A DNA stretch of 20,000 nt, taken from positions 48,455 to 68,454 of the forward strand of contig JAADIO010000046.1 in assembly GCA_013151235.1 (NCBI GenBank). Reading direction: 5' to 3'. Within the stretch, counting starts at the first letter, position 1; the number at the start of each line of letters is the position of its first letter. This document shows, piece by piece, positions 1 through 14,955 of the stretch. The position numbers and the translations under genes are program-made. The notes beneath the pieces are model-generated. The model was not told the DNA's origin. It worked only from the letters and a program-made list of their open reading frames with translations, and did no database searches. The DNA comes from Deltaproteobacteria bacterium. Lineage in GTDB: Bacteria; CG2-30-53-67.

Positions 1-393
1 GAGTTTCCCCTCCTGTGGGTTGAAAAGGAACAGCTCGTGGCGGTTCTTCGACTCCTTCGTGACCGTTTCGATTTCGAGTCCCTCATGTGCGAGACGGCGG
101 CCGACAAGGGGAATCATTTTGATCTGATCTATCACCTTTTCTGTACGGTCCGCAGGGAGACCCTGGTGATCAAGACGGAGGTTCCCCGCGGGAATCCGCA
201 GGTGGAGACGGCGGAAGAGGTATGGAGCTCGGCCAACTGGTACGAACGGGAGATCTTCGATCTGTTCGGTGTGGAGTTCATCGGCCACAGTGACCTGTCA
301 AGGATCCTGCTCCCGCCGGACTGGGTCGGCCATCCCCTCCGGAAGGACTACAGCCCGGCCGCGGAGTATCACGGCATGAAAATCGAGTTTTGA
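1..393 (+). CDS. nuoC: NADH-quinone oxidoreductase subunit C (5'-truncated by window edge)
   Basis: Frame is open from base 1. NuoC signature ANWYEREIFDLFGVEFIGH..RILLP.DWVGHPLRKDY. Separate from nuoD (not fused). Confidence 0.97.
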   Translation, partial: EFPLLWVEKEQLVAVLRLLRDRFDFESLMCETAADKGNHFDLIYHLFCTVRRETLVIKTEVPRGNPQVETAEEVWSSANWYEREIFDLFGVEFIGHSDLSRILLPPDWVGHPLRKDYSPAAEYHGMKIEF

Positions 394-427
394 TGAAACG
401 GTTTAAGACGAAACCCCGAGGTTGAAA

Positions 428-1558
428 ATGGCAACCGTACGATCCACGTTACGGACACAGGAAATGCTCCTCAACATGGGGCCGCATCATCCGAGTACTC
501 ACGGGGTACTGAGGCTGATTCTCCGTCTCGACGGGGAGGTGGTGGAAGATGTTTTCCCGGATATCGGCTATCTCCACCGGGGGATCGAGAAAATCGGAGA
601 GTCCCTGACCTACAGGCAGTTCATCCCCTACACCGACCGGGTGGAGTACCTCTCATCGATGAACGTCAATCACCTGTACTGCATGGCCGTGGAAAAACTG
701 GCCGGGATCGAGGTGCCGGAACGGGCGGAATACATCCGGGTGATCATGGCGGAGTTGAACCGGATCATCAGCCACATCATCGGCTGCGGGGCGCTTGCCA
801 TGGACCTCGGCGCCTTCACCCCATTTCTCTACGGCGTGGTGGAACGGGAAAAGGTGAACGATCTTTTCGAGATGACCTGCGGCCAGCGGCTGACCTACAA
901 TTACATGAGAATCGGCGGGGTCTCGCAGGACCTGCCCGAAGGATTTGTCGGGAAGTGCAATCTCTTTCTCGACGAGATGAAGTCCCGGTGGGACGAGATC
1001 AACCGGCTCATCACCGGAAATGAAATCTTCGTGCGGCGGCTGGCGGACGTGGCCGTCCTGACCGTGGAGGACGCCTTCGGTTACAACATCACCGGTCCCA
1101 ACCTTCGTGCTTCCGGTGTGGACTGGGACCTTCGGCGGGACATGCCCTACTCGGTCTATGACCGCTTCGGTTTTGATGTTCCCGTGGGCTACGGAGAGCG
1201 GGGAACCGTCGGGGACAGCTACGACCGTTATCTCATGCGGGTCCGGGAGATCTACGAATCCCTCCGGATCGTCCGGCAGGCACTGGACGGACTGCCGGAG
1301 GGGGAGGTGCAGGCGAGGGTCCCGAAGATCTTCAAACCGCCCGCAGGTGAGGTCTATATGAGGGCGGAGAGCCCCAGGGGGGAGATGGCCGTATATATCG
1401 AAAGTGACGGTTCGGCCAGGCCTGCACGAATCAAGTTCAAGACCCCTTCGTTTAATTCTCTGGGGGTGTTCAATAAGATCTGCCGGGGACATATGCTTTC
1501 CGACCTCGTGGCCGTGATCGGAAGTTTTGACATCGTCCTCCCGGAAGTGGACAGGTGA
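428..1558 (+). CDS. nuoD: NADH-quinone oxidoreductase subunit D
   Basis: Motifs NMGPHHPSTHGVLRL, GYLHRGIEK, ESPRGE and C-terminal DIVLPEVDR. ATG at 428 is preceded by GAGG. No NiFe-binding CxxC pairs. Confidence 0.97.
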   Translation: MATVRSTLRTQEMLLNMGPHHPSTHGVLRLILRLDGEVVEDVFPDIGYLHRGIEKIGESLTYRQFIPYTDRVEYLSSMNVNHLYCMAVEKLAGIEVPERAEYIRVIMAELNRIISHIIGCGALAMDLGAFTPFLYGVVEREKVNDLFEMTCGQRLTYNYMRIGGVSQDLPEGFVGKCNLFLDEMKSRWDEINRLITGNEIFVRRLADVAVLTVEDAFGYNITGPNLRASGVDWDLRRDMPYSVYDRFGFDVPVGYGERGTVGDSYDRYLMRVREIYESLRIVRQALDGLPEGEVQARVPKIFKPPAGEVYMRAESPRGEMAVYIESDGSARPARIKFKTPSFNSLGVFNKICRGHMLSDLVAVIGSFDIVLPEVDR

Positions 1559-2652
1559 CGGAGATGGAATCGAGCAGCAGACTCTTCTCGGAATTTCTGC
1601 AGCGGAGCCTACACATCAGTCCGGCTCTTGCCGCCGTCTTGTCGCTGATCGTTGGTGTCGGACTTGGCGTGGCGGCGATTCCCCTGATCCCCGGTTTCGG
1701 GAGTTACCTGGAGCGGAAGGTCGCGGCCGACATCCAGCAGCGGATCGGACCGAACCGGGCGGGGTTCCTTCCCTTCGGGATCATGCAGGTCCTGGCCGAC
1801 GGGATCAAGACATTGCAGAAGGAAGATCTGATCCCGGCCAAGGCGGACCGCTTTCTCTTCCGTGCGGCGCCCTATGTCTGTATCGTCGGGGTTTTCTCCT
1901 GCTTTGCTGCGATCCCGTTTTCGGAGTACTGGTACCCGGCGGACCTGAACATAGGGGTCTATTATATCCTCTGCGTTTCGTCGCTCATGGCGGTCGGGAT
2001 CGTCCTGGCGGGGTGGGCGTCGAACAACAAATGGACCCTCCTCGGCGGGATCCGTTCGGCCGGGCAGATGGTGAGCTACGAGATTCCCATCGCCGTGTCG
2101 GTGGTGACCGTGGCCATGCACTTCGGTTCCCTCGATCTTGCCGAGATTACGGCGGCGCAGAAGAACGGATGGGCCGTCGCTTTCTGGAATACCAATCCTT
2201 TTATTACGCTCTCTTTCGTTGTTTACTGGATCGCGGCCCTGGCCGAATGCAACCGGACCCCGTTCGATCTTCCGGAGGCAGAGTCGGAATTGGTGGCGGG
2301 CTACTTCACGGAGTACAGCGGCCTTCGCTTTTCCTTCTTTGCCATTGCCGAATATGCCGAAATGTTCGTTGTTTCGGCCATGGCCGTGATCCTCTACTTC
2401 GGCGGGTTCACTCTCCCCTTCGAGGGCTCTCTTTCCGTACTGAAGGGGTTGCCCGGAGGCGGGCTCGCGACGCTTCATTTTGCCGTCTTCCTGGTCAAGG
2501 TCTGGTTCATGATCTTTCTCATGATCTGGATCCGCTGGACCCTGCCCCGCTACCGGATCGACCAGTTGATGGATCTCTGCTGGAAGGGGCTTTTGCCCCT
2601 TGCCTTTTTAAACTTCTTAGGGTCGGCCTGTTGGATGGCCCTGATCGGTTAA
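1555..2652 (+). CDS. nuoH: NADH-quinone oxidoreductase subunit H
   Basis: Motifs ERKVAADIQQRIGPNR, ADGIKTLQKED, NRTPFDLPEAESELVAGYFTEYSG, PRYRIDQ. GTG start overlaps the nuoD stop (GTGA). Confidence 0.97.
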   Translation: MTEMESSSRLFSEFLQRSLHISPALAAVLSLIVGVGLGVAAIPLIPGFGSYLERKVAADIQQRIGPNRAGFLPFGIMQVLADGIKTLQKEDLIPAKADRFLFRAAPYVCIVGVFSCFAAIPFSEYWYPADLNIGVYYILCVSSLMAVGIVLAGWASNNKWTLLGGIRSAGQMVSYEIPIAVSVVTVAMHFGSLDLAEITAAQKNGWAVAFWNTNPFITLSFVVYWIAALAECNRTPFDLPEAESELVAGYFTEYSGLRFSFFAIAEYAEMFVVSAMAVILYFGGFTLPFEGSLSVLKGLPGGGLATLHFAVFLVKVWFMIFLMIWIRWTLPRYRIDQLMDLCWKGLLPLAFLNFLGSACWMALIG

Positions 2653-2655
2653 GAC

Positions 2656-3135
2656 ATGTTGAAAATGTTCAGGCAGACCGTGAAGACCCTTCGCACCTCC
2701 CTCACCGGGATGCGGATTACGGCGCGTTATTTCAAACCGGGCACGGAGGTAACCCGGGAGTATCCCGAGGTTCCGCCCTTATCCTTTGAGCGAACCCGGG
2801 GGCGGATGGATGTGGCCATGGATCGGTGTACCGCCTGCACCTTGTGTGCGAAGGCCTGTCCCGTGGAGTGCATCACCATCGAGACGGAAAAGAAGCGGGA
2901 AGGGAAGGGGAGGCGGGCGGCCCGGTTTGTCATCGATTTTTCCCGGTGCATGTTCTGCGGGCTCTGTGTGGAGGCCTGTCCTACGAAGGCGATCCGGCAT
3001 ACGGGCAAGTGCGATTTCTCCTCTTATCTGCGGGAAGACCTGGTGGAGGATTTCGGCATGGGATTCTACACGGAGGAGGAGAAGACAATAAAAACCAAGG
3101 CACTAAGGATCAAAGGCACAGAGGGGCAAAGTTGA
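2656..3135 (+). CDS. nuoI: NADH-quinone oxidoreductase subunit I (2x[4Fe-4S])
   Basis: TREYPE motif; two CxxCxxCxxxCP motifs (CTACTLCAKACP, CMFCGLCVEACP); position after nuoH. Confidence 0.95.
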   Translation: MLKMFRQTVKTLRTSLTGMRITARYFKPGTEVTREYPEVPPLSFERTRGRMDVAMDRCTACTLCAKACPVECITIETEKKREGKGRRAARFVIDFSRCMFCGLCVEACPTKAIRHTGKCDFSSYLREDLVEDFGMGFYTEEEKTIKTKALRIKGTEGQS

Positions 3136-3206
3136 AAGTAAAAAGCAAAGTCTAAACCAAAAGGCATTCACCATGAAGGATGATGAAGTCGTAAAAAGTC
3201 ACGAAG

Positions 3207-3308
3207 CCCTTCGACCCTTCGACCAGCTCAGGACAGGCGTGCTCAGGGCGAACGGTGTAAGTTATTGATATTCCGTTCGTGGTGAGCCTGTCGAACCATG
3301 AACGGAAT
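3207..3308. repeat. REP-like palindromic doublet inside the MITE
   Basis: CCCTTCGA..GCTCAGGGCGAACGG unit, plus an inverted related unit forming hairpin ATTCCGTTCGTGGT-GAGCCTGTCGA-ACCATGAACGGAAT (3270-3308). Confidence 0.75.
3258..3270 (-). promoter_or_regulatory. IHF consensus site
   Basis: Minus strand reads TATCAATAACTTA, an exact match to WATCAAnnnnTTR, centred between the two REP-like units. Confidence 0.55.
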
Positions 3309-3381
3309 CCGGAAAACGATTTTTTACGACTTCATCAAGGATATGAAGGGTATGAAGAAAGAAAGGGCAAATTCACCGCAG

Positions 3382-3465
3382 TCTCCCTGCCGGGAGAGGG
3401 GAAGTTGTTTTGCCTTGAGGATGTCACTTCCTCTCCCCTTAGGGAGAGGATGGAGGTGAGGGGGG
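3382..3465. repeat. Second REP-like family (CTCTCCC/GGGAGAG hairpins)
   Basis: Hairpins TCTCCC-tgcc-GGGAGA (3382-3397) and TCCTCTCCC-ctta-GGGAGAGGA (3429-3450), followed by TGGAGGTGAGGGGG. Confidence 0.65.
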
Positions 3466-3510
3466 ACGTTGGCTTCCGTCTGACCGTTGACTCTTACAAA
3501 CCGAGGGATC

Positions 3511-4035
3511 ATGGAACTCAAAGAGATCATCTTCATCCTGCTGGTTGTTGTAACGATCGTGTCTGCTTGGCTTGTGGTCTCGCTGAAGCACATCATCCAC
3601 GCGGCCTTTGCTCTGCTGATCACTTTCTTCGGTGTCGCCGGGCTCTTTGTCTATATCAGCGCCGATTTCCTGGCCGCGACACAGATTCTGATCTATGTGG
3701 GCGGGGTCATGATTCTCGTATTGTTTGCCATCATGCTCTCCGAGAAGGTTTATAACGTCAGCATATTCAACCGGTCGAAGATCCTGCCGGCTCTGCTCGT
3801 CTTCGGCGGGGTACAGTTTGTTCTTGTGCGGGTGATGTTGGAGTCGGCCTGGAGGATAAGGCCGGGAACGGCTTCGGTGATGCGCCCCACGACGAAGATC
3901 CTGGGGCGGCTTCTATTGAATGATTACCTGCTTCCGTTTGAGCTGGTCTCCGTTCTGCTCCTTGCCGCGCTGATCGGTTCGGTGGTGCTGATCCGAAAAG
4001 AGGTCCGGCGGGGACAACGCGGGGGGGAGGGGTGA
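3511..4035 (+). CDS. nuoJ: NADH-quinone oxidoreductase subunit J
   Basis: Motifs ADFLAATQILIYVGGVMIL.LFAIML and YLLPFELVSVLLLAALIG. ATG at 3511 follows GAGGG. Confidence 0.96.
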   Translation: MELKEIIFILLVVVTIVSAWLVVSLKHIIHAAFALLITFFGVAGLFVYISADFLAATQILIYVGGVMILVLFAIMLSEKVYNVSIFNRSKILPALLVFGGVQFVLVRVMLESAWRIRPGTASVMRPTTKILGRLLLNDYLLPFELVSVLLLAALIGSVVLIRKEVRRGQRGGEG

Positions 4036-4340
4036 TGATCTCCCTGGAAAGCTATCTTTTTGTCGGAATGATGCTCTTTGTTTTCGGCATGTTCGGGATC
4101 ATCACCCGGAAGAATGCCATCAGCGTTCTTCTCGGATTTGAACTGGTGATGAATGCCGCGGGGCTCAATTTTGCGGCCTTCTCCCATTTTACGGACAAGA
4201 CCATCCATGGGCAGGTCTTTACCCTCTTTATTATCGCCCTGGCTGCGGCGGAGTCGGTGGTCATCCTGGCCCTGATCATTGCGGTCTACCAGAAGATGGA
4301 TACGATTCAGATCGATGAGATTGATTCCTTAAAAGGGTAA
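4035..4340 (+). CDS. nuoK: NADH-quinone oxidoreductase subunit K
   Basis: Motifs RKNAI.VLLGFELVMNAA and GQVF.LFIIALAAAE. Start overlaps the nuoJ stop (ATG 4035, or GTG 4032). Confidence 0.96.
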   Translation: MISLESYLFVGMMLFVFGMFGIITRKNAISVLLGFELVMNAAGLNFAAFSHFTDKTIHGQVFTLFIIALAAAESVVILALIIAVYQKMDTIQIDEIDSLKG

Positions 4341-4431
4341 AGGGGGCCTGTTTGCAGATACTGTGACGCACCGGGAGTGCCGCCGTATTTACGAACAGGG
4401 CCGCTCAGCCCGGCATGAAGGGAAGGCATTT

Positions 4432-6537
4432 ATGATGACATACGATTTAGCGCATCCATCTTTTCCCGTGATTGTGCTGCTCCTTCCCCTTTCGGCCTTC
4501 GTGGTGCAGCTCTTCTTCGGCAAAAGGCTTCCCCGGGGCGGGGACTGGATTTCCACGACGGCGATCCTCGGCGGGTTCGTGCTTTCTCTCCTCACTGCGG
4601 TTGATGTCCTTTCTTACGGTGACCCGAACTTTCATTATGAGGTTTCCGTCCCCTGGATTGCCTTCGGTCATGTCACGCTGACCATGGGGATGCTCGTCGA
4701 TAACCTTACGGCGATCATGCTCGTCCTCGTAACGGGGATTGCCTCGTGCGTTCACTTCTTTTCCATGTACTATATGGACGGTGATGCCGGGTATCATCGC
4801 TATTTCGGTTATCTCTCCTTCTTTTGTTTTTCCATGCTGGGGATCGTGATTTCCGATAATCTCCTGATGACCTTCATGTTCTGGGAACTGGTCGGGTTTG
4901 CCTCCTATTCCCTGATCGGATTCTGGTTTCACAGGGACTCCGCCGCGGAGGCGCAGAAGAAGGCTTTCGTGGTCAACCGTGTCGGCGATGTCGGGTTCAT
5001 TGTCGGTCTGATGATCGTCTTCTCCCGGGTCGGGGACTTCCGTTTCAGCCGGGTTTTTGATGCCGTCGGCGCCGGCTCCTTCAACGGCGCAGTCCTCTTC
5101 GGGATTCCTCTTTTGACTGTTGCCGGAATCGGGATCTTTCTCGGGGCCATGGGGAAGTCGGCCCAGTTCCCCCTCCACGTCTGGCTCCCCGATGCCATGG
5201 AGGGGCCGACCACGGCGAGTTCCCTGATTCATGCCGCAACGATGGTGGCGGCAGGGGTCTTTCTTACGGCCCGGATCTTTCCGGTTCTGACGCCGGAGGC
5301 GTTGGTCTTCGTGACCTGGATCGGTGCGATCACGGCGATGATGGCGGCGACGATCGCCCTGGTCCAGCGGGATATCAAAAAGGTTCTCGCCTACTCCACG
5401 ATCAGCCAGCTCGGTTATATGATGTTGGGGCTCGGCGCCGGCGGTTACGCTGCGGGGTTGTCTCATCTCTTTACCCACGCCTTCTTCAAGTGCCTTCTCT
5501 TCCTCTGTGCCGGGAGCGTGATCCATTCCCTCCACACGCAGGACATGTTCGAGATGGGGGGGCTCAGAAAAAAAATGCCCGTGACTTTTATCACGATGCT
5601 GTCGGGGGCGCTTGCAATCTCCGGTGTCCCCTTTTTCTCCGGCTTCGTCAGTAAAGATGCCATCCTGACCCAGGTTTATCTGAAGACGCTGGAACAGCCC
5701 GACCTGCTCCATCGCATTCCCTTCCTCCTTGGGATGGGGGCGGCGGTGCTGACGGCCTTCTACATGTTTCGTTTGATCTTTCTGACCTTCTTCGGTACAC
5801 CGAGGGATCGGGGCAGATTTGATCACGCCCATGAATCGCCGCCTCTGGCGACGGTTCCTCTGGTGATCCTCGCGCTCTTTACCTTCGGGTTCTTCTGGAG
5901 CGGAAGTGTCGATCTGCCTGTGCCGGGCCATGCGGTTCGGATTCCCGTGGGGTTTGTTGAGGAAGGATGGATCTCTCATCTTCTCGTGCCGCCTGCCCTC
6001 AAAGGTCTTTCCGTCTCCACAGCGGAAGGAGATTACAGCGAAGCGAAGGAAGTCGAAGAAGGATATGCGGATCCGCACTCTGCAGCCCACCGCCGGGTGG
6101 GTCTCCTTTCCATGGCGGCGGCCGCCGCCGGGATTCTACTGGCCTGGATGATCTATCTGAAAGAATGGATCTCCGCCGGGGCGGTCCGGCGCCGGATGAT
6201 TGTTGCGGCCTTGTTCCTGGAAAACCTCTGGTATTTCGATTATCTCTATGACCGGGGAATCGTCCGGGGTCTGCATCGATGGAATCGTGCCGTCTTCCGG
6301 TTTGACCGGAAGGTGATTGACGGGCTGGTAAATGCCGTTGGTTGCGGCGGAGCCTGGACGGGACGTCTTGCCGGGGCTTTCGACCGGAACGTGATCGACG
6401 GATTGGTGACCCTGACAGCGGACTCCGCTCAACGTCTGGGGCGGGAGTTCAGCCGGTTTCAGACCGGCCGGATACAGGGGTATGTTTTTTTGGGCCTGCT
6501 GGCCCTCTGTCTCTATGTGATCGTCGGGGTAATGTAA
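4432..6537 (+). CDS. nuoL: NADH-quinone oxidoreductase subunit L with lengthened lateral helix
   Basis: Motifs FWELVG, KAFVVNRVGD, GKSAQFPLHVWLPDAMEGPT..S.LIHAATMV, KKVLAYSTISQLG, HAFFK. ATG at 4432 follows AAGGGAAGG. Confidence 0.97.
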   Translation: MMTYDLAHPSFPVIVLLLPLSAFVVQLFFGKRLPRGGDWISTTAILGGFVLSLLTAVDVLSYGDPNFHYEVSVPWIAFGHVTLTMGMLVDNLTAIMLVLVTGIASCVHFFSMYYMDGDAGYHRYFGYLSFFCFSMLGIVISDNLLMTFMFWELVGFASYSLIGFWFHRDSAAEAQKKAFVVNRVGDVGFIVGLMIVFSRVGDFRFSRVFDAVGAGSFNGAVLFGIPLLTVAGIGIFLGAMGKSAQFPLHVWLPDAMEGPTTASSLIHAATMVAAGVFLTARIFPVLTPEALVFVTWIGAITAMMAATIALVQRDIKKVLAYSTISQLGYMMLGLGAGGYAAGLSHLFTHAFFKCLLFLCAGSVIHSLHTQDMFEMGGLRKKMPVTFITMLSGALAISGVPFFSGFVSKDAILTQVYLKTLEQPDLLHRIPFLLGMGAAVLTAFYMFRLIFLTFFGTPRDRGRFDHAHESPPLATVPLVILALFTFGFFWSGSVDLPVPGHAVRIPVGFVEEGWISHLLVPPALKGLSVSTAEGDYSEAKEVEEGYADPHSAAHRRVGLLSMAAAAAGILLAWMIYLKEWISAGAVRRRMIVAALFLENLWYFDYLYDRGIVRGLHRWNRAVFRFDRKVIDGLVNAVGCGGAWTGRLAGAFDRNVIDGLVTLTADSAQRLGREFSRFQTGRIQGYVFLGLLALCLYVIVGVM

Positions 6538-6561: not shown

Positions 6562-8109
6562 ATGCTGATGAATCATATCCTGTCGTGGATGACCTTCTTT
6601 CCCCTTTCGGTCATGGTGGTGATTCTCTTTCTTCCCGGATCAAAGAAAAACCTGATCCGATGGACCGGTGTTCTCGGTTCTCTGGTTCCCTTCCTCCTTT
6701 CCTGCTGGATCTTTTTCGTCTATCAGGACAACGGCTCCCTGGCCTTCGTGGAGAGAAGCGCATGGATTCCCCTCTTTCATATCGAATACTACATGGCCAT
6801 CGACGGGCTTTCCGCCTCCCTTCTGATCCTGACGGCGCTGATCTCCTTTATCGCCGTGGTGGCCTCGTGGGGGATCGAAAAGCAGTTGAAAGGGTACTTC
6901 GCCCTGATGATGCTCCTGGAGACGGGGATGATCGGGGTCTTCTGTGCCCTCGACTTTTTCCTCTTTTACATCTTCTGGGAGCTGATGCTCCTGCCGATGT
7001 ATTTCCTCATCGGGATCTGGGGGGGGCCGCGGAAGGAGTATGCTGCGATCAAGTTCTTTCTCTACACCCTTGCGGGTTCGGTTCTGATGCTCCTCGCCAT
7101 GCTGGCGATCTATTTTTATTCGAATATCGACGGTCACCACTCCTTCGATCTTATCGCCCTGGCGGCGCACTACAAACAGTTCGAGGCGGCTCCTCCCATA
7201 TTCGGTTTCCGCTTTCCCCTGATCGTCTTTGCAGCGCTCTTCATCGGTTTTGCCATCAAGATACCCGTCTGGCCCTTCCACACCTGGCTGCCCGACGCCC
7301 ATGTGGAGGCGCCCACGGCGGTCAGTGTGATCCTGGCGGGGGTTCTTCTCAAGATGGGGGGATACGGTCTGCTCAGGATCTGTTATGCCGTCTTCCCCCG
7401 GGCGGCGATCTACTTCGCCGTGCCCATCGGGATTCTCGGGGTGACCAGTATTCTCTACGGCGCCTTCTGCGCCATGGCCCAGAAAGATCTGAAAAAACTG
7501 GTGGCCTACTCCTCCGTTTCCCATATGGGGTATGTCATGTTGGGGATTGCCGCCCTGCGGGAGACCAGTATGTTAGGCGCCGTCATGCAGATGTTCAACC
7601 ACGGCACGGCCACGGCCATGATGTTCCTTCTCGTCGGGGTGATCTATGACCGGGCACATCACAGGGACATGGAAAGGTTCGGCGGGATCGGGGCGGTGGT
7701 CCCCCGCTACATGGGGGTGATGATCCTGGCGACCTTCGCTTCGATGGGTCTGCCGGGGCTCTCCGGGTTCATCTCGGAGATCTTCGTCTTCCTGGGCTCC
7801 TTCCGGTCGGGGATTGCCTCCCATGCCGGGTCGGTCTGGAACTTTGTGAACTTTCAGTCCCTGACGATTATCGCCGCATTCGGTGTCGTGATTACGGCGG
7901 CCTATCTCCTCCGGATGCTGCAGAAGGTTTTTTTGGGTCCCCTGAATCCGGAATATGAGAACCTGGCCGAGATCAACGGCCGGGAAATCTTTACCCTCGT
8001 GCCTCTGGGGATTGCCGTGATCGTCTTCGGCGTTTACCCTATGCCGTTGATCCGGTTGATGAACTCATCCGTGACGCATCTTGTCGGGTTCATCCTGGGG
8101 AGTCAGTAG
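6562..8109 (+). CDS. nuoM: NADH-quinone oxidoreductase subunit M
   Basis: Motifs FYIFWELML.PMYFLIGIWG, YAAIKFFLYT, PFHTWLPDAHVEAPT, LLKMGGYG, KKLVAYSSVSHMG. Confidence 0.97.
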   Translation: MLMNHILSWMTFFPLSVMVVILFLPGSKKNLIRWTGVLGSLVPFLLSCWIFFVYQDNGSLAFVERSAWIPLFHIEYYMAIDGLSASLLILTALISFIAVVASWGIEKQLKGYFALMMLLETGMIGVFCALDFFLFYIFWELMLLPMYFLIGIWGGPRKEYAAIKFFLYTLAGSVLMLLAMLAIYFYSNIDGHHSFDLIALAAHYKQFEAAPPIFGFRFPLIVFAALFIGFAIKIPVWPFHTWLPDAHVEAPTAVSVILAGVLLKMGGYGLLRICYAVFPRAAIYFAVPIGILGVTSILYGAFCAMAQKDLKKLVAYSSVSHMGYVMLGIAALRETSMLGAVMQMFNHGTATAMMFLLVGVIYDRAHHRDMERFGGIGAVVPRYMGVMILATFASMGLPGLSGFISEIFVFLGSFRSGIASHAGSVWNFVNFQSLTIIAAFGVVITAAYLLRMLQKVFLGPLNPEYENLAEINGREIFTLVPLGIAVIVFGVYPMPLIRLMNSSVTHLVGFILGSQ

Positions 8110-8184: not shown

Positions 8185-9651
8185 ATGTCTTTACTGCAAC
8201 AGAATATTCTCGATGTGCAGCGCCTCCTTCCGGAGATCCTTCTCTTCGGTGTCTTTGGGGTGATGCTGACGGCCGACCAGTTTCTGCCGAGACGGCGGAA
8301 AAAGTGGATCGTTACTTTGGGGATTGCGGGGCTGGCTGTTGTCGGTTGTCGTCTGGTCATGGAAGGAATGACGGTGGCCCGATCGGGGCCGGTTTCCCTC
8401 TTCGGAGGAATGATGGTTGTCGATCATTTCGCGATCTTTTTCCAGTGGATCTTCCTGGTCACGACCGTTGTTGCCCTGCTGATGGCTGTCCGCTCGGACG
8501 AGATTGAGAAACAGAACGAAGGGGAATACTACATTCTGACCGTGGCGGTCTGCTTCGGGATGTTCTTTCTTGCCGCCTCGACTCACCTGTTGATGATCCT
8601 CCTCTCCTTCGAGATGATCAGCATCGTCTCCTACGTGCTGGCCGGCTACCTGCGGGGGGATCCCCGGTCGAGCGAATCCGGGATCAAGTACGTGATCTAC
8701 GGCGCTTTTACGACGGGGATCATGATCTACGGGATGTCTCTTCTCTACGGCCTGACCGGGTCATTGCAGATTGAGCGGATTCACGATTTCCTGATGACCG
8801 CCCGGACAGGGGTGGTTCCCGTGACGGTGATTCTCCTGATGATCTCGGCGGGGATGCTCTACAAGATCGCCGCCGTTCCCTTTCATATGTGGTCGCCCGA
8901 TGTCTATGAAGGGGCACCGACGGCGGCGACCGCTTTCTTCTCCGTCGGTCCGAAGGCGGCGGGGTTCGCCATCCTGATCCGGTTCTTCCTGGTGACCTTC
9001 GGCAAGGATTTTCAGGTTGACTGGCGGCAGATCATGGCGATCCTCTCGATGGCGACGATGACGATCGGGAATTATACGGCGCTCAGGCAGGAGAACGTGA
9101 AACGGATGCTGGCCTACTCCAGTATCAGCCATGCCGGATATCTCCTTATGGGAATGGCCGTGGCCTCGCCCGCGGGACGCAGTGCCATCCTTTTCTATCT
9201 CCTTGTTTACATGGTGATGAATTCGGGCGCCTTTATCGTGGTCCTCGCACTGGAGAACATTCTGCACGATTCGGACCTTGCGATTTACAGAGGGATCGGG
9301 ACCCGGCTGCCGCTGCCGGCGGTGACGATGGTCATCTTTCTTGTCTCTCTCGCCGGTCTTCCCCCCACGGCCGGTTTTGTGGGAAAATTCTTCCTCTTCA
9401 AGGCGGTGATCGCCGAGAAGCTCTATCTTCTGGCCCTGGTGGGCATTGTCAACAGCCTGGTTGCTCTCTATTACTATATGCGGGTGGTCAAAGCGATGTA
9501 TATGGAACAGCCGGAGCAGGCGTTGCCGCAGGAGATGTCGGTAACGCCGCTCTATCGTTTTCTGCTGGTCTTGTCGGCGGTGCCGATACTTTATCTTGGG
9601 ATTTTCTTCGAAACGGTTTATCATATATCGGCCCAAGTCGTGTTCGGGTAG
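8185..9651 (+). CDS. nuoN: NADH-quinone oxidoreductase subunit N
   Basis: Motifs SSESGIKY, KIAAVPFHMWSPDVYEGAPT, KRMLAYSSISHAGY, GLPPTAGFVGK, YYYMRVVK. Confidence 0.97.
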   Translation: MSLLQQNILDVQRLLPEILLFGVFGVMLTADQFLPRRRKKWIVTLGIAGLAVVGCRLVMEGMTVARSGPVSLFGGMMVVDHFAIFFQWIFLVTTVVALLMAVRSDEIEKQNEGEYYILTVAVCFGMFFLAASTHLLMILLSFEMISIVSYVLAGYLRGDPRSSESGIKYVIYGAFTTGIMIYGMSLLYGLTGSLQIERIHDFLMTARTGVVPVTVILLMISAGMLYKIAAVPFHMWSPDVYEGAPTAATAFFSVGPKAAGFAILIRFFLVTFGKDFQVDWRQIMAILSMATMTIGNYTALRQENVKRMLAYSSISHAGYLLMGMAVASPAGRSAILFYLLVYMVMNSGAFIVVLALENILHDSDLAIYRGIGTRLPLPAVTMVIFLVSLAGLPPTAGFVGKFFLFKAVIAEKLYLLALVGIVNSLVALYYYMRVVKAMYMEQPEQALPQEMSVTPLYRFLLVLSAVPILYLGIFFETVYHISAQVVFG

Positions 9652-9687
9652 GGGGACACAGGGACGGATTTATTGGAGAGCCTTGTA

Positions 9688-10305
9688 ATGCCGGGTGACA
9701 GCGGAAATTTCAGGTTTCCTTTTCGGGGAATCTCGCGGGAGAAGTTCTATACCGAGTCGGACCCGAAATTCTATGAGAAGGTAGAAGAGATTTCATCCTG
9801 CTGGCAGGAGGAGTTCGATGCCGGGAATCTGCATGCCGTGGCTGCCCTGCTGAAGGAAGGGGGGCCGGCGTTTTTGCATGTTCCCTGGATCCGGGAACAG
9901 ATAAGGGTCTGGGAGGAGGAGGCGAGCGAGTCCTCGTTGAAACTTCTTCAGGAGATTGAAGCGATCGTGACCGGCAAGTCCCATGAGACCGGAAGTCAAA
10001 AGCCTTTCGGTGAAAAACAGTTGATGCTCAAGGAGTATGATACCTATCTCCACCGTTTCATCGAGCTCTGTGAGAAACGGCGACTGATCTGCGGAGATTG
10101 CCCCAATTTTCAGCAGGACCCCTATATCGTCTCCTGCTTTGCCGACTGTGATTTCCCGGCACGGCGTGAGAAACTTCGGGAGGTTGCCGGGGGTGTCAGG
10201 CGGATGGAGACGATCTTTCAACATCCTCCCTACCTGAAAGCCCTTCGCATGGTGGTGCTCGATGGTGAGATCTTTCGGAAACGGAAGAATCCCGGAAGGG
10301 GTTAA
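9688..10305 (+). CDS. Hypothetical soluble protein with C-terminal Cys cluster
   Basis: About 205-aa ORF filling the gap after nuoN. GGAG lies upstream of ATG 9688. Contains C-x6-C-x2-C-x11-C-x3-C. No family recognised. Confidence 0.7.
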   Translation: MPGDSGNFRFPFRGISREKFYTESDPKFYEKVEEISSCWQEEFDAGNLHAVAALLKEGGPAFLHVPWIREQIRVWEEEASESSLKLLQEIEAIVTGKSHETGSQKPFGEKQLMLKEYDTYLHRFIELCEKRRLICGDCPNFQQDPYIVSCFADCDFPARREKLREVAGGVRRMETIFQHPPYLKALRMVVLDGEIFRKRKNPGRG

Positions 10306-11206: not shown

Positions 11207-12352
11207 ATGCGGGTTGCAATCATTGGAGCAGGGATTGCAGGGTGCCATGCCGCCGCTCTGCTTGCAGGGGAAGGGCATGAGGTCCTCCTTTACGATCCGA
11301 TGTCGCCCTGGGAGAAACCCTGCGGTGGTGGGATCACTCCCCGAAACTTCAGAGATTTTCCTTTCCTTAATGAGTTCCGGTCCGGCTGTTTTCCCGTCCA
11401 CCGGATGCTGATGGAGGCGCCCGACGGCACAAGATGCGTCATTCCGTTTCCCGAACCGGTATGGATTGCCTCCCGGCATGCACTCGGAGAGTTCCTCCTG
11501 AAACGGGCGGAGGCGGCTGGCGCCCGGCATCTGAGGCAACAGGTCATCAGGGTTGAGGGAAAAGGGGAAGGGTGGAGGGTTGTCACCGGGGGAGGAAAAA
11601 CCGGAGCCGATTTCCTTGTCGGCGCCGACGGGGTCAACAGTATGGTCCGCTCCCGGTTGTCCGCCCGGTTGCCCCGAAAAGACGAAACGTTGGCCGTCGG
11701 CTACTGGATCGAAGGGGCGATGGAAGATGAACTTGTGATCGCCTTTCTGAAGGGGATTTCCGGTTATCTTTGGATCTTCCCGCGGAAAGAGCACCTCTCC
11801 GCCGGGATCGGGGCCCGGGTGGGAGAGGCCTCGGGCCGGGAACTGTTCGGACACCTCGACCGGTACCTTGAACGGTTTGATGCACGCCTCATGGAACGGC
11901 CCAAAAAACCTTATGGGGCCTTGATCCCGGCGCTGACCCGGGAGGGGTTGAAGGTGAACCGCATCTGCGGGGGAAACTGGGCGCTGATCGGTGATGCCTC
12001 CGGGCTTGTTGATCCGGTGACGGGCGAGGGGATCTATTACGCCTTCCGGTCCGCCGAATTTCTTGTTGAGGCCTTCCGGTGGTGTAAGGTGGAAATGTAT
12101 GAAGAGATCTGCCGGAAACGGATCGTACCCGAACTTCGTCAGGCGGCGGCCTATGTGCGGACCTTTTTCGATCCCGGCGTCTCCTGCCGTCTGGTGCAAC
12201 TTGCCGGAGACAAGGCGGGCGTCCGGCGACTTCTGGCAAGGCTGATTGCCGGGGAGCAGGGGTATCGCACTTTGAAGAGGGAACTGCTGAAGGTCATTCC
12301 CTCACTTTTTTGGGATTTCCTGGGAAATATGTTTCCGGGCGAATTGAAATGA
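11207..12352 (+). CDS. FAD-dependent oxidoreductase, geranylgeranyl reductase family
   Basis: Rossmann motif VAIIGAGIAG, plus EKPCGGG, VGADG.NS, GYLWIFP, LIGDASGLVDPVTGEGIYYA. GGAGG RBS. Confidence 0.9.
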   Translation: MRVAIIGAGIAGCHAAALLAGEGHEVLLYDPMSPWEKPCGGGITPRNFRDFPFLNEFRSGCFPVHRMLMEAPDGTRCVIPFPEPVWIASRHALGEFLLKRAEAAGARHLRQQVIRVEGKGEGWRVVTGGGKTGADFLVGADGVNSMVRSRLSARLPRKDETLAVGYWIEGAMEDELVIAFLKGISGYLWIFPRKEHLSAGIGARVGEASGRELFGHLDRYLERFDARLMERPKKPYGALIPALTREGLKVNRICGGNWALIGDASGLVDPVTGEGIYYAFRSAEFLVEAFRWCKVEMYEEICRKRIVPELRQAAAYVRTFFDPGVSCRLVQLAGDKAGVRRLLARLIAGEQGYRTLKRELLKVIPSLFWDFLGNMFPGELK

Positions 12353-12424
12353 TTCGGTTTACATGATATACATGTGGATAGATCTATCAATATGTTTAAT
12401 TGTTGTGCTTGAGGTTTGACCCGT

Positions 12425-13693
12425 TTGGACATTCCCTTATATTCATACATCCTGTTCACCCTCGGTTTTCTTCTGTTTTCCGCCTTTATCTCCGGTTCGA
12501 AGAAGGCCTTCTTTTTTCTGGATCGTGAGGAGATCCTCTCTCTTCCTTCCGGGAAGGGGCGGGAGGCGCTCCTCTTTCTAAGTGGGAAACCGAGACGTAC
12601 CCTGCTGACGCTTCTGATCCTGCACCTCGTTTTCCAGGCTTTGTTGGTGCTCTTTACGCTGACGGCCATTCAACAGGCGCCGGCCCGGTTGGCGGCGCTT
12701 TTCTGCCTCCTGATTCTCTATCTTGCCGTCGGAAGGATTCTTCCGCGTGCCCTGGTGCAGGGGCGGGAACTGCTCTATCTCCGGAATGCGGCCGTCTATT
12801 TGAAATTTCTTTTTCGTCTTGTTGCCCCTTTTCGGGCCATTGTTGAGAAGATCTCCTTTTTTCTGCTCCGGGGAAGCGGCGGGGAATTGCCGATGTTTCA
12901 GGATCGGGACTTCATCCACCGGGTGATGCCGGTGCCGGAGGAGGGTCCGGGACTGTATGAACGGGAGATGGTTCAGAACGTCATGGAGTTCCAGGAAACA
13001 CTGGTCAAGGAAGTGATGACGCCCCGGCCCGACATGTTTTGTGTCGAACTGGAGGAGGATGTGCAGAGCGTTATGGAGAAAATCCGCACCTCCCGTTATT
13101 CCCGTATCCCCGTGTATGAGAAGGATCTCGATCATATCGTGGGGATCCTCTATGCCAAGGATCTGCTCTCCCTCCTGATCGAAGAGAACGGTATGGAACG
13201 GCATTGTATCGGGGAACTACAGCATCCGGCATTGCATATTCCGGAAACCAAACGAGTCAGTGAACTCCTCCGTGATTTCAAGAAGCAGAATGTTCATATT
13301 GCCATGGTGGTGGATGAGTTCGGCGGGGTGGAAGGTCTGGTCTGTCTTGAGGATCTCCTGGAAGAGATCGTGGGAGAACTCCAGGACGAGGCGGATGAGG
13401 AAGAGCGGCCGGTAAAAAAGATTTCCGACCGGGTCTGCCGTGTTTCCGCGATGTTGCCGCTGGAGGATTTCAACACCCTCTTCCAGGTTTCCATTGAAAG
13501 TGAGGACTACGAGACGGTCGGGGGGTTTGTGGTGGATCAATTGGGGCATTTTCCCAAATGGGGGGAGCGGATTCGTTATGAAGGGCTGGAGATCGTGGTT
13601 TACCGGGTCCGGAAGGTCCGGGTCCTGGAACTGATGGTCACCCGGCTCGATGACGTTCCGGCAGAGGGTGAAGCTCCTGCCGGAGAGATGTAA
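12425..13693 (+). CDS. CNNM/CorB (hemolysin-like) transporter: DUF21 + CBS pair + CorC/HlyC
   Basis: N-terminal TM segments; VKEVMTPRPDM, YSRIPVY, HIAMVVDEFGGVEGLVCLEDLLEEIVGE, DYETVGG. Start is uncertain (TTG 12416 or 12425). Confidence 0.9.
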   Translation: MDIPLYSYILFTLGFLLFSAFISGSKKAFFFLDREEILSLPSGKGREALLFLSGKPRRTLLTLLILHLVFQALLVLFTLTAIQQAPARLAALFCLLILYLAVGRILPRALVQGRELLYLRNAAVYLKFLFRLVAPFRAIVEKISFFLLRGSGGELPMFQDRDFIHRVMPVPEEGPGLYEREMVQNVMEFQETLVKEVMTPRPDMFCVELEEDVQSVMEKIRTSRYSRIPVYEKDLDHIVGILYAKDLLSLLIEENGMERHCIGELQHPALHIPETKRVSELLRDFKKQNVHIAMVVDEFGGVEGLVCLEDLLEEIVGELQDEADEEERPVKKISDRVCRVSAMLPLEDFNTLFQVSIESEDYETVGGFVVDQLGHFPKWGERIRYEGLEIVVYRVRKVRVLELMVTRLDDVPAEGEAPAGEM

Positions 13694-13698
13694 AACGC

Positions 13699-14955
13699 AT
13701 GTGGCTGAATCTTTTCTATCTGATTGCCGGACTGGCCGGATTCGTCGGGGAGGCCTTTTTCGCCGTTGCCGAGAATGCCCTGGTGGCTTCCGATAAACTG
13801 CTTCTTCTCGATCAGAAGGAGAAAGGGCCGGGGATCCTGCCGCTGTTGCAGATGCTTTCCCATCCACAGCGGATCTCCCAGACCCTGCTCGTCGGATCGG
13901 TCTTCTCCGTGGGGGTTGGTACAACCTTTTCTTTTCTGCTCCTTTTCCGTCTCAGCGGCGGTACGCCCGGTTTGCTTCTTCTTCCGGTTTTTGCCTTTCT
14001 CCTGATCCTGATCATCGTTTTTGCGGAAGTCCTTCCCCGTGCGATTTTTTCGGATTGTCCCGAGGAAACGGCCCTTCGTATCGCCCGGCCCCTTGCGGTC
14101 TGCATGTCGTCTCTGCGTGTTGTGATCGACCCGGCCCTACGCTTTTTCGAGACCGTACGCACGATTTCCGGGTTGAAAGGGAAAGAGGAAACCCCCTTTG
14201 TTGAAGACGAGGACCTGGAGTGGATCCGCCGGTTTGTCCGGGGGAGTGAAACCCTGCGCAGAGAGGAGGTCCGGATCATCCGGAAAATCATCGATTTCAG
14301 CGAGATCCGTGTCCGCGATGTTTGTGTCCCCCTCGAACAGGTGATCGCGGTCGAGGAGAGGGAGAATATTTCCCGGGCCATTCGGAAAATTCGGGAAAGC
14401 GGATTCACGCGCCTTCCCGTCTATCGGAAGGAAGAACATGAAATTGTGGGCATACTTCATGCCCTCGATCTCTTCAGCCAGCGGGGACTCGATACTCCGG
14501 TGGACGCGTGCTGCCGTCAACCCTTCTTTGTTTCGGAGGAGACCTTGATTCGTGATCTCTTCCGGGACCTCCAGCGATTGGGGATCGTCATGGCCGTGGT
14601 CCGGAATCATACAGGCAGGGCGGTCGGCATTGTCACCATGGAAGATCTGCTGGAGGAGATCTTTGGAGAGATTGAGGATGAATTTGACCTGAAGGATCAG
14701 TTTTTCCGGAAGATCGGCCGCGGGGAGTATCTTGTGGATACCCGGGTTGACCTTGATGCTTTGCAGGAGGCTCTTCAGTTGCCGATTCCCCGAAACGGCT
14801 ATCGGACCTTGAACGGGTATATCCTTCACTATCTTCGGCGGGTCCCCCAGGAGGGGGAACGGTTCACCATCGGGGACCTGATGTTTAAGGTCGAGCTGGC
14901 CGATCAACGGAGAATTTATAAACTCTTTGTACGAAAACTGGAATTTCCCCGATAG
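13699..14955 (+). CDS. Second CNNM/CorB (hemolysin-like) transporter
   Basis: Motifs EAFFAVAENALV, FAEVLPR, GFTRLPVY, GIVTMEDLLEEIFGEIEDEFD, YRTLNGY. Confidence 0.9.
   Translation: MWLNLFYLIAGLAGFVGEAFFAVAENALVASDKLLLLDQKEKGPGILPLLQMLSHPQRISQTLLVGSVFSVGVGTTFSFLLLFRLSGGTPGLLLLPVFAFLLILIIVFAEVLPRAIFSDCPEETALRIARPLAVCMSSLRVVIDPALRFFETVRTISGLKGKEETPFVEDEDLEWIRRFVRGSETLRREEVRIIRKIIDFSEIRVRDVCVPLEQVIAVEERENISRAIRKIRESGFTRLPVYRKEEHEIVGILHALDLFSQRGLDTPVDACCRQPFFVSEETLIRDLFRDLQRLGIVMAVVRNHTGRAVGIVTMEDLLEEIFGEIEDEFDLKDQFFRKIGRGEYLVDTRVDLDALQEALQLPIPRNGYRTLNGYILHYLRRVPQEGERFTIGDLMFKVELADQRRIYKLFVRKLEFPR

Follow-up and report, generated by a model that had tools for sequence, protein, structure and literature searches.

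A doubled 26-residue module in the lateral helix of NuoL from a complex I operon with a single nuoM

How many antiporter-like subunits does a complex I hold when the lateral helix (HL) of its NuoL subunit contains a doubled module and its operon encodes only one NuoM? This question is raised by a locus from a Deltaproteobacteria bacterium (assembly GCA_013151235.1, contig JAADIO010000046.1), which we analysed as a stretch of 20,000 nucleotides, referred to here as the window; it lies on contig C21 of a genome of 2.62 Mb (73 contigs, 99.25% complete) that was searched in full. Pfam scans together with the list of open reading frames (ORFs) identified a co-directional operon of 11 genes, nuoABCDHIJKLMN, in which nuoL (4363..6537, plus strand; Pfam Proton_antipo_N, PF00662, 2.8e-17, and Proton_antipo_M, PF00361, 2.8e-77) sits between nuoK and nuoM, as in complex I operons, and a single nuoM separates nuoL from nuoN. 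Since nuoD directly abuts nuoH, the genes nuoE, nuoF and nuoG are absent from the operon. As a matter of anatomy alone, the presence of a doubled HL module in the nuoL of this single-nuoM, nuoEFG-less operon is close to certain.

The C-terminal part of NuoL reads WYFDYLYDRGIVRGLHRWNRAVFR-FDRKVIDGLVNAVGCGGAWTGRLAGA-FDRNVIDGLVTLTADSAQRLGREFSR-FQTG (translation of 4363-6537), in which the two middle segments form the candidate docking modules of HL: module 1 (FDRKVIDGLVNAVGCGGAWTGRLAGA; 6301..6378, plus strand) and module 2 (FDRNVIDGLVTLTADSAQRLGREFSR; 6379..6456, plus strand), followed by the QTG motif and the C-terminal anchor, transmembrane helix 16 (TM16; 6460..6534, plus strand). A preliminary description of this DNA had reported a tandem repeat with a 26-residue period, a net lengthening of HL and a lone nuoM, and all three are upheld. 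In the raw sequence FDRKVIDGLV is encoded at 6301-6330 and recurs as FDRNVIDGLV at 6379-6408, an offset of 78 nt or 26 codons. From FDYLYD to QTG window NuoL spans residues 625-702, i.e. 78 amino acids, versus 53 between the same landmarks in a second NuoL of the same genome, whose gene belongs to a 14-gene operon on contig C72. Measured from WYxDxxYD to QTG, window NuoL exceeds this paralogue by 25 residues, and in an alignment of long- and short-HL NuoL sequences the length of HL between fixed columns is 77 in window NuoL versus 51-53 in the short class. The best 10-residue self-match within window NuoL is 9 out of 10, a value never attained in 200 shuffles of the protein (maxima of 8 once, 7 in 29, 6 in 143 and 5 in 27 shuffles). 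The two modules share 11 of 26 residues, nine of these among the first 14, and 37 of 78 nucleotides, with identity at just 9 of 26 third-codon positions: residues have been kept while third-codon positions were randomised, which argues that the likeness is held by selection at the protein level and does not reflect a recent copy. The view that the duplication is young in this lineage must therefore be given up: window nuoL contains an old tandem duplication of one 26-residue HL module, kept by selection.

What, then, has been doubled? In a MAFFT alignment of E. coli K-12 nuoL with long- and short-HL NuoL sequences, the E. coli residues P564-L565-N566 align with V-I-D of the FDxxVIDG motif (in the window, with the copy in module 2). 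Belevich et al. (2011, PMC3274701) place P564 at the kink of HL, where the helix contacts NuoM, and name L565 and N566, in the kink region, as the HL residues nearest to NuoM in structure 3RKO. As V-I-D aligns with those E. coli residues reported to be nearest to NuoM, the duplication appears to double the NuoM-docking module. Among 46 long-HL NuoL sequences (41-83% identity to window NuoL for the members of alignment A1), module 1 is conserved as FD..iIDGiVNGsA and module 2 as FD.yVVDGLVN..A, the information content in both modules reaching 3.3 bits or more at positions F, D, I/V, D, G, V and N. The short-HL NuoL from contig C72 places 26 residues between the D of its motif and the Q of QTG, equal to the repeat period, and the QTGxxQxY/TM16 region is similar in the long- and short-HL classes. 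In addition, HL is exactly 77 residues long in 46 of 53 distinct long-HL sequences; this invariance argues for a fixed geometric constraint and against a floppy loop.

An AlphaFold2 (AF2) model of NuoL was calculated from a 63-sequence alignment (model numbering is residue number, counted from GTG 4363, minus 23) and exhibits a mean predicted local distance difference test score (pLDDT) of 87.7. For HL (6226..6450, plus strand) the model predicts 75 residues of uninterrupted helix (622-696 counted from GTG 4363; 599-673 in the model), continuing through both modules and forming no hairpin. The layout of TM15, HL and TM16 is present, with helices at 535-576, 582-673 (with two one-residue breaks) and 682-700 in model numbering, the last corresponding to TM16. 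Along HL the pLDDT drops from ~86 to ~43 toward TM16, as expected for a strap that was modelled without its partners. The top Foldseek matches of the model are NuoL, NdhF and ND5 chains.

The arrangement is not special to the window genome. The same 11-gene order with one nuoM and the same insertion is found in close relatives (G001, G004, G005 and the partial G002) and in distant genomes (G028, G029 and G019; NuoL identity 42-46%, BLASTP). Together with these loci, the best 80 of at least 598 matches among species-representative genomes gave 93 entries, chosen by their likeness to window NuoL, so that the counts show breadth and not prevalence. Eight entries with truncated, frameshifted or masked NuoL were dropped (L038, L067, L075, L079, L097, L098, L109 and L027), leaving 85; two of these were kept out of the tree (L128, a duplicate of L106, and L064, cut at its C-terminus), so that 83 distinct complete NuoL sequences remained. 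Over the 85 rows HL measures 77 residues in 46, 76-80 in six (five distinct), 103 in one, 135 in one, 51-53 in 30 and 33 in the C-terminally cut one; a long HL is thus present in 53 of the 83 distinct complete sequences. A single nuoM accompanies it in 44 of the 45 long-HL operons in which L to N is visible, the exception being an L-M-M-N operon from Nitrospirales. Among the long-HL operons, 39 have a visible junction between nuoD and nuoH, and nuoE and nuoF are absent from all of them: 38 are without E, F and G and share the order nuoABCDHIJKLMN with nuoD beside nuoH, while the remaining one possesses just a G-like gene. Of 21 short-HL operons whose junction is visible, 14 include nuoE or nuoF, two (both partial views) have just a G-like gene and five have none of the three. 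As labelled in their records, the long-HL carriers belong to Ignavibacteria, Melioribacter, Sphingobacterium and other Bacteroidota, a Chlorobiales metagenome-assembled genome (MAG), Calditrichota, Marinimicrobia, KSB1, Zixibacteria, Planctomycetota and Deferrimicrobiaceae.

In a FastTree phylogeny of the NuoL core, built with the HL columns removed, 46 sequences, all of them long-HL and including that of the window, form one clade with a support of 0.975, and seven long-HL sequences fall outside it (some nodes are weak, 0.11-0.19, others well supported, 0.94). The window locus is an ordinary member of a large long-HL NuoL clade that spans many phyla, and a long HL beside one nuoM is the usual state of this clade. 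Two further points of the preliminary description find their place here. The lengthened HL had been called a hallmark of the 2M type of complex I, which as a matter of length is correct: the cluster of a Nitrospirales MAG (L127, reached via L090) reads nuoABCD-(G-like)-IJKL-M-M-N, and its NuoL exhibits an HL of 77 with the insertion at the same place as in the window. The insertion had also been ascribed to 'green (Chlorobi-type)' operons with a single nuoM; here the label fails, green being the rhizobial variant (PMC9040806), but a Chlorobiales MAG (L043) does possess a long HL and one nuoM.

That the extension arose by tandem duplication, as had also been proposed, can be read most directly from the G019 lineage (L026, G019:C3; L134-L136, G046 and G019), where 38 of the 42 nt in the first 14 codons remain identical between the two modules. 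Identity between the long-HL NuoL and a short-HL paralogue encoded in these genomes is 59-62%, and the long-HL operon has one nuoM and no nuoEFG; together these findings point to an independent and much younger duplication, or to gene conversion. Two other loci depart from the common pattern. The NuoL of an Ignavibacteriae MAG (L108) has a 58-residue insert between the modules with two hydrophobic, transmembrane-like stretches, giving an HL of 135, on a contig that ends within the gene. Outside any nuo operon, a Nitrospirales MAG (L126, G031:C5:364000-383999) encodes a 713-residue NuoL/MrpA-like protein (ORF 11755-13893, minus strand), flanked by two NuoM-like genes, whose C-terminal helix holds three tandem repeats of ~27 residues (WLWxxxDxxxxD...) and whose strap would thus also have been lengthened by module duplication.

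A mechanism that would join these features treats HL as a periodic ruler with docks some 23-26 residues apart. The first dock would be the WYxDExYD segment over NuoL itself, placed there because HL is reported to touch each of the three pump subunits; the second would be the FDxxVIDGxVNG motif, docking NuoM; and the third would be RxxQTG together with TM16 at NuoN. One added dock of the NuoM type would lengthen HL by 26 x 1.5 Å, or ~39 Å, and leave the QTG/TM16 anchor unchanged; such a distance would be roughly the width of one antiporter-like subunit. The simplest arrangement for four docks and an unchanged anchor would be L-M-M-N with two copies of the single NuoM, which would supply a fourth pump module and probably translocate 5 H+ per 2 e-. 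Such a stoichiometry would be in keeping with a donor of low potential, for instance ferredoxin, or with electron flow in reverse to reduce ferredoxin; as ferredoxin offers more driving force than NADH, it could cover the cost of a fifth proton, and the missing nuoEFG fits a donor of this kind. The fact that a true L-M-M-N operon, that of L127, has the same HL length as the window also counts for the L-M-M-N arrangement. We would put this account as a whole, including two copies of one NuoM, at slightly short of an even chance. Its extension to the entire family is offered tentatively, as a plausible proposition with the balance somewhat against it: HL would be a molecular ruler setting the number of pumps, the whole long-HL, single-nuoM family would hold two adjacent NuoM copies (L-M-M-N, 5 H+/2e-) and three-module variants (Sphingobacterium paucimobilis) three, four-pump complex I would be common and duplication of the nuoM gene a later refinement. 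This joint claim would span Ignavibacteria, Bacteroidota, Chlorobi, Calditrichota, Planctomycetota, the window lineage and others.

Several results weigh against a second NuoM. Duplication of the nuoM gene has almost never followed in the long-HL clade, as the 44 single-nuoM operons out of 45 make plain. The NuoL of Sphingobacterium paucimobilis HER1398 (L085:10025-12067) has three FD/LDxxxV(D/E)G modules, and thereby an HL of 103 (77 + 26), beside one nuoM, a case that strains a one-to-one relation of modules to pumps unless three copies are present; this genome has eight antiporter-like genes in three separate clusters, which to judge by coordinates and frame lengths are two L-M-N sets plus an Mrp-like pair. 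Five nuoEFG-less operons, as well as the cyanobacterial-type NuoL/NdhF from nuoEFG-less operons, have a short HL. A docking face shared by NuoM and NuoN would predict raised similarity between these subunits in long-HL operons, and M-N similarity is not raised (median score 310 vs 326, p = 0.23; the rows are mostly of one clade and hence non-independent). On the structural side, the pLDDT across module 2 is just 43-66, and a sequence search (50 chains, E <= 1e-20) and Foldseek returned known NuoL, NdhF, ND5 and MrpA chains, whose lengths and alignments gave no hint of a long HL. Lastly, HL of E. coli tolerates insertions of 6-7 residues at several sites, implying some slack (PMC3274701). As separate observations, long-HL operons show raised L-M similarity (median local score 380 vs 294, p = 3e-7) and reduced L-N similarity (280 vs 315), both comparisons being confounded by shared ancestry.

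Some of these results would be explained more easily if the helix were simply a longer brace and no fourth pump were present, an alternative that we consider unlikely but that deserves to be taken seriously. The arm would then be L-M-N: module 1 would bind NuoM, module 2 would bind the corresponding, homologous position of NuoN, and TM16 would be anchored ~39 Å further along, near NuoK/J/A or NuoH, so as to stiffen the whole membrane arm in the absence of the large NuoEFG head. The single nuoM in 44 of 45 long-HL operons agrees with this, as does a Melioribacteraceae MAG (G039) in which only three antiporter-like genes are detected (E <= 1e-5); NuoN is homologous to NuoM, so that a dock of the NuoM type could fit it, and in our sample the long HL is confined to operons without nuoE or nuoF. 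The three-module, one-nuoM case of Sphingobacterium paucimobilis is likewise easier to read as a still longer brace. However, the QTGxxQxY/TM16 region is alike in both HL classes, which is unexpected if the anchor had moved to a non-homologous site; the five nuoEFG-less operons and the cyanobacterial-type NuoL/NdhF manage with a short HL; and in a true 2M enzyme an extension of equal length serves a fourth subunit.

A fourth pump could also be encoded elsewhere in the genome, in which case the extra module would strap the NuoM or NuoN of the C72 operon, or a subunit of a cluster on contig C19. Genes of this kind do exist: tblastn of NuoL, NuoM and NuoN against the whole window genome gave three antiporter-like sets, namely the window operon, the L-M-N set on C72, which belongs to a 14-gene nuoA-N operon including E, F and G and with a short-HL NuoL, and two genes on C19. 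No orphan nuoM was found by this search in the 99.25%-complete genome. The C19 cluster (G000:C19:11783-20632, minus strand) encodes two antiporter-like subunits of 708 and 483 residues; judged by their translations, its neighbouring genes look like hydrogenase large and small subunits, and we read the cluster as a probable Hyf/Hyc-type group-4 NiFe hydrogenase. From its translation, the 708-residue protein appears to end in a lateral-helix-like segment of its own and a terminal transmembrane helix. Nine of ten carrier genomes searched likewise hold antiporter-like genes beyond the long-HL operon (5 to 8 matches each, versus 3 in G039). Against an imported pump stands G039 itself, whose three antiporter-like genes all lie in the long-HL operon. 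Moreover, G036, G037 and G038, complete or chromosome-level genomes, hold exactly two L-M-N sets each and no orphan, and the Chlorobiales MAG G044 adds only an MrpA/MrpD-like pair, named from reading-frame lengths alone. Across the ten carrier genomes, several of them MAGs of unreported completeness, no orphan antiporter-like gene was found, the extra sets always forming their own complete L-M-N or Mrp-type clusters. We thus regard a pump encoded elsewhere as improbable, and the distal NuoM paralogue that the preliminary description had offered as one option is weakened by G036-G039.

Equally poor are the prospects of a tolerated relic, a module looped out or resting on lipid without a partner as the neutral leftover of a former 2M state or of slippage: although HL of E. 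coli accepts short insertions at several sites (PMC3274701) and the duplication probably arose more than once (seven long-HL sequences outside the main clade, and the near-fresh G019 copy), both modules are strongly conserved over phylum-level distances with a length of 77 in 46 of 53 sequences, residues have been kept while third-codon positions were randomised, and AF2 gives a continuous helix.

The remainder of the operon was inspected as well. On the contig, nuoA and nuoB (C21:47440-48377) lie just upstream of the window, which opens within nuoC (1..393, 5' end cut by the window edge; Pfam Complex1_30kDa, 2.9e-40) and continues on the plus strand with nuoD (422..1558; Complex1_49kDa, 4.2e-94), nuoH (1555..2652, directly after nuoD; NADHdh, 1.9e-113), nuoI (2656..3135; Fer4 families), nuoJ (3487..4035; Oxidored_q3, 5.2e-35), nuoK (4032..4340; Oxidored_q2, 5.9e-25), nuoL, the sole nuoM (6562..8109; Proton_antipo_M, 5.5e-72; 47% identity to C72 NuoM) and nuoN (8185..9651; Proton_antipo_M, 5.9e-73; 40% identity to C72 NuoN). 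The subunits measure 365 (H), 182 (J), 102 (K), 515 (M) and 488 (N) residues in the window operon versus 337, 176, 101, 502 and 482 in the C72 operon. A 210-residue ORF (9673-10305) that begins 22 nt past nuoN was considered as an extra membrane subunit and rejected: it has no hydrophobic stretch (maximum Kyte-Doolittle mean over 19 residues of 0.99) and no Pfam match, appears soluble and has matches in close relatives only (78% identity in G002, a partial match in G004). Given these gene lengths and the soluble, poorly conserved nature of this ORF, nothing else in the operon is sufficiently enlarged to occupy the extra space under HL, a point in favour of the L-M-M-N arrangement. The gap between nuoI and nuoJ (3136-3486) amounts to 351 nt in an otherwise tight operon, relatives having ~230 nt, and contains just short ORFs (31 and 53 residues) without evident membrane character. 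Upstream of nuoA lie genes for PEPCK (phosphoenolpyruvate carboxykinase), NamZ, a pyridine-nucleotide disulphide oxidoreductase, an AAA ATPase and a LysR-type regulator divergent from nuoA; no evident electron-input module was found among them.

Concerning the start of nuoL, the frame opens at GTG 4363, and matches to orthologues begin only at residue 21-24, which makes ATG 4432 (giving 701 residues) the likelier start; the segment of 23 codons at 4363-4431 is probably not translated. A purine-rich GAAGGGAAGG (from back-translation) precedes ATG 4432.

The H+/e- ratio of complex I is set by how many antiporter-like modules the enzyme contains, and this ratio determines how much energy is conserved from a low-potential donor, or the price of reduced ferredoxin obtained by reverse electron flow. 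Were a second NuoM indeed present, the stoichiometry assumed in bioenergetic models would have to change for many anaerobes and for Bacteroidota and Ignavibacteria of gut and sediment, pump numbers read from gene counts alone would be too low, and HL would be recast from a strap into an assembly ruler. The window locus is one more ordinary carrier in this respect, and its value lies in being a clean, well-conserved example.

Comparison with known systems places the window operon among several variants of complex I. By sequence as well as by fold, the nearest solved NuoL/NdhF is that of cyanobacterial and plastid NDH-1 (6HUM, 6KHJ; Foldseek template-modelling score 0.76-0.84). The two systems share 11 core subunits, the lack of NuoEFG and the NuoL fold, whereas HL is short in NDH-1 (51-52 in the cyanobacterial loci L081, L087, L089 and L105) and the solved arm contains three antiporter-like subunits. 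NDH-1 takes its electrons from ferredoxin. The rhizobial green complex I resembles the L-M-M-N proposal as a complex I variant with four pump subunits, but there the place of NuoL is taken by two MrpD-like subunits (Degli Esposti and Martinez-Romero 2016, cited in PMC9040806), while the window operon has a single NuoL (Proton_antipo_N and a C-terminal HL), one nuoM and one nuoN. The 11-subunit NUO of Bacteroides fragilis, a distant relative, is alike in its nuoEFG-less gene content; the experiments of Ito et al. (2020, PMC7002350) show that it does not oxidise NADH and uses a donor yet to be named. Within our own sample, the loci from Bacteroidota (Sphingobacterium, Parapedobacter and several MAGs) combine a long HL with one nuoM.

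In 2M complex I the likeness lies in the helix itself, window HL being lengthened by roughly 26 residues at the same place. The defining study of this type is reportedly that of Chadwick, Hemp, Fischer and Orphan (2018, ISME J 12:2668), as cited in PMC9040806, PMC6606698, PMC12342949, PMC7117926 and PMC7419157; according to PMC6606698, the Nitrospira-type 2M cluster is also without nuoE and nuoF. In contrast to 2M clusters, which encode two diverged nuoM genes, the window operon encodes one and its genome has no orphan. The 2M example L127 differs in two further ways: its module 2 has decayed to IENHVVYAGLN and shares 2 of 26 residues with module 1, whereas the window keeps the motif in both (11 of 26), and in the NuoL core tree it lies outside the clade of the window.

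The closest precedent is found in Ca. Manganitrophaceae, where, according to Yu et al. (2022, PMC9040806), Complex_I_1 and Complex_I_2 exhibit a lengthened HL beside one nuoM and the same question is posed, namely whether such enzymes are able to accept an extra pump or are in transition; the combination is thus known already. Those clusters are described there as canonical in gene content, probably with nuoEFG, while the window operon has 11 genes, a comparison made by description only. In our literature search, which covered Chadwick 2018 via citing papers, an insertion beside a single nuoM was noted only in PMC9040806. Beyond this precedent, the present analysis maps the doubled unit to the NuoM contact published for E. 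coli, finds that the proposed docks are set apart by the same 26 residues, identifies within the window genome a short-HL paralogue that can serve as an internal control and, for the G019 lineage, describes a near-fresh and apparently independent duplication.

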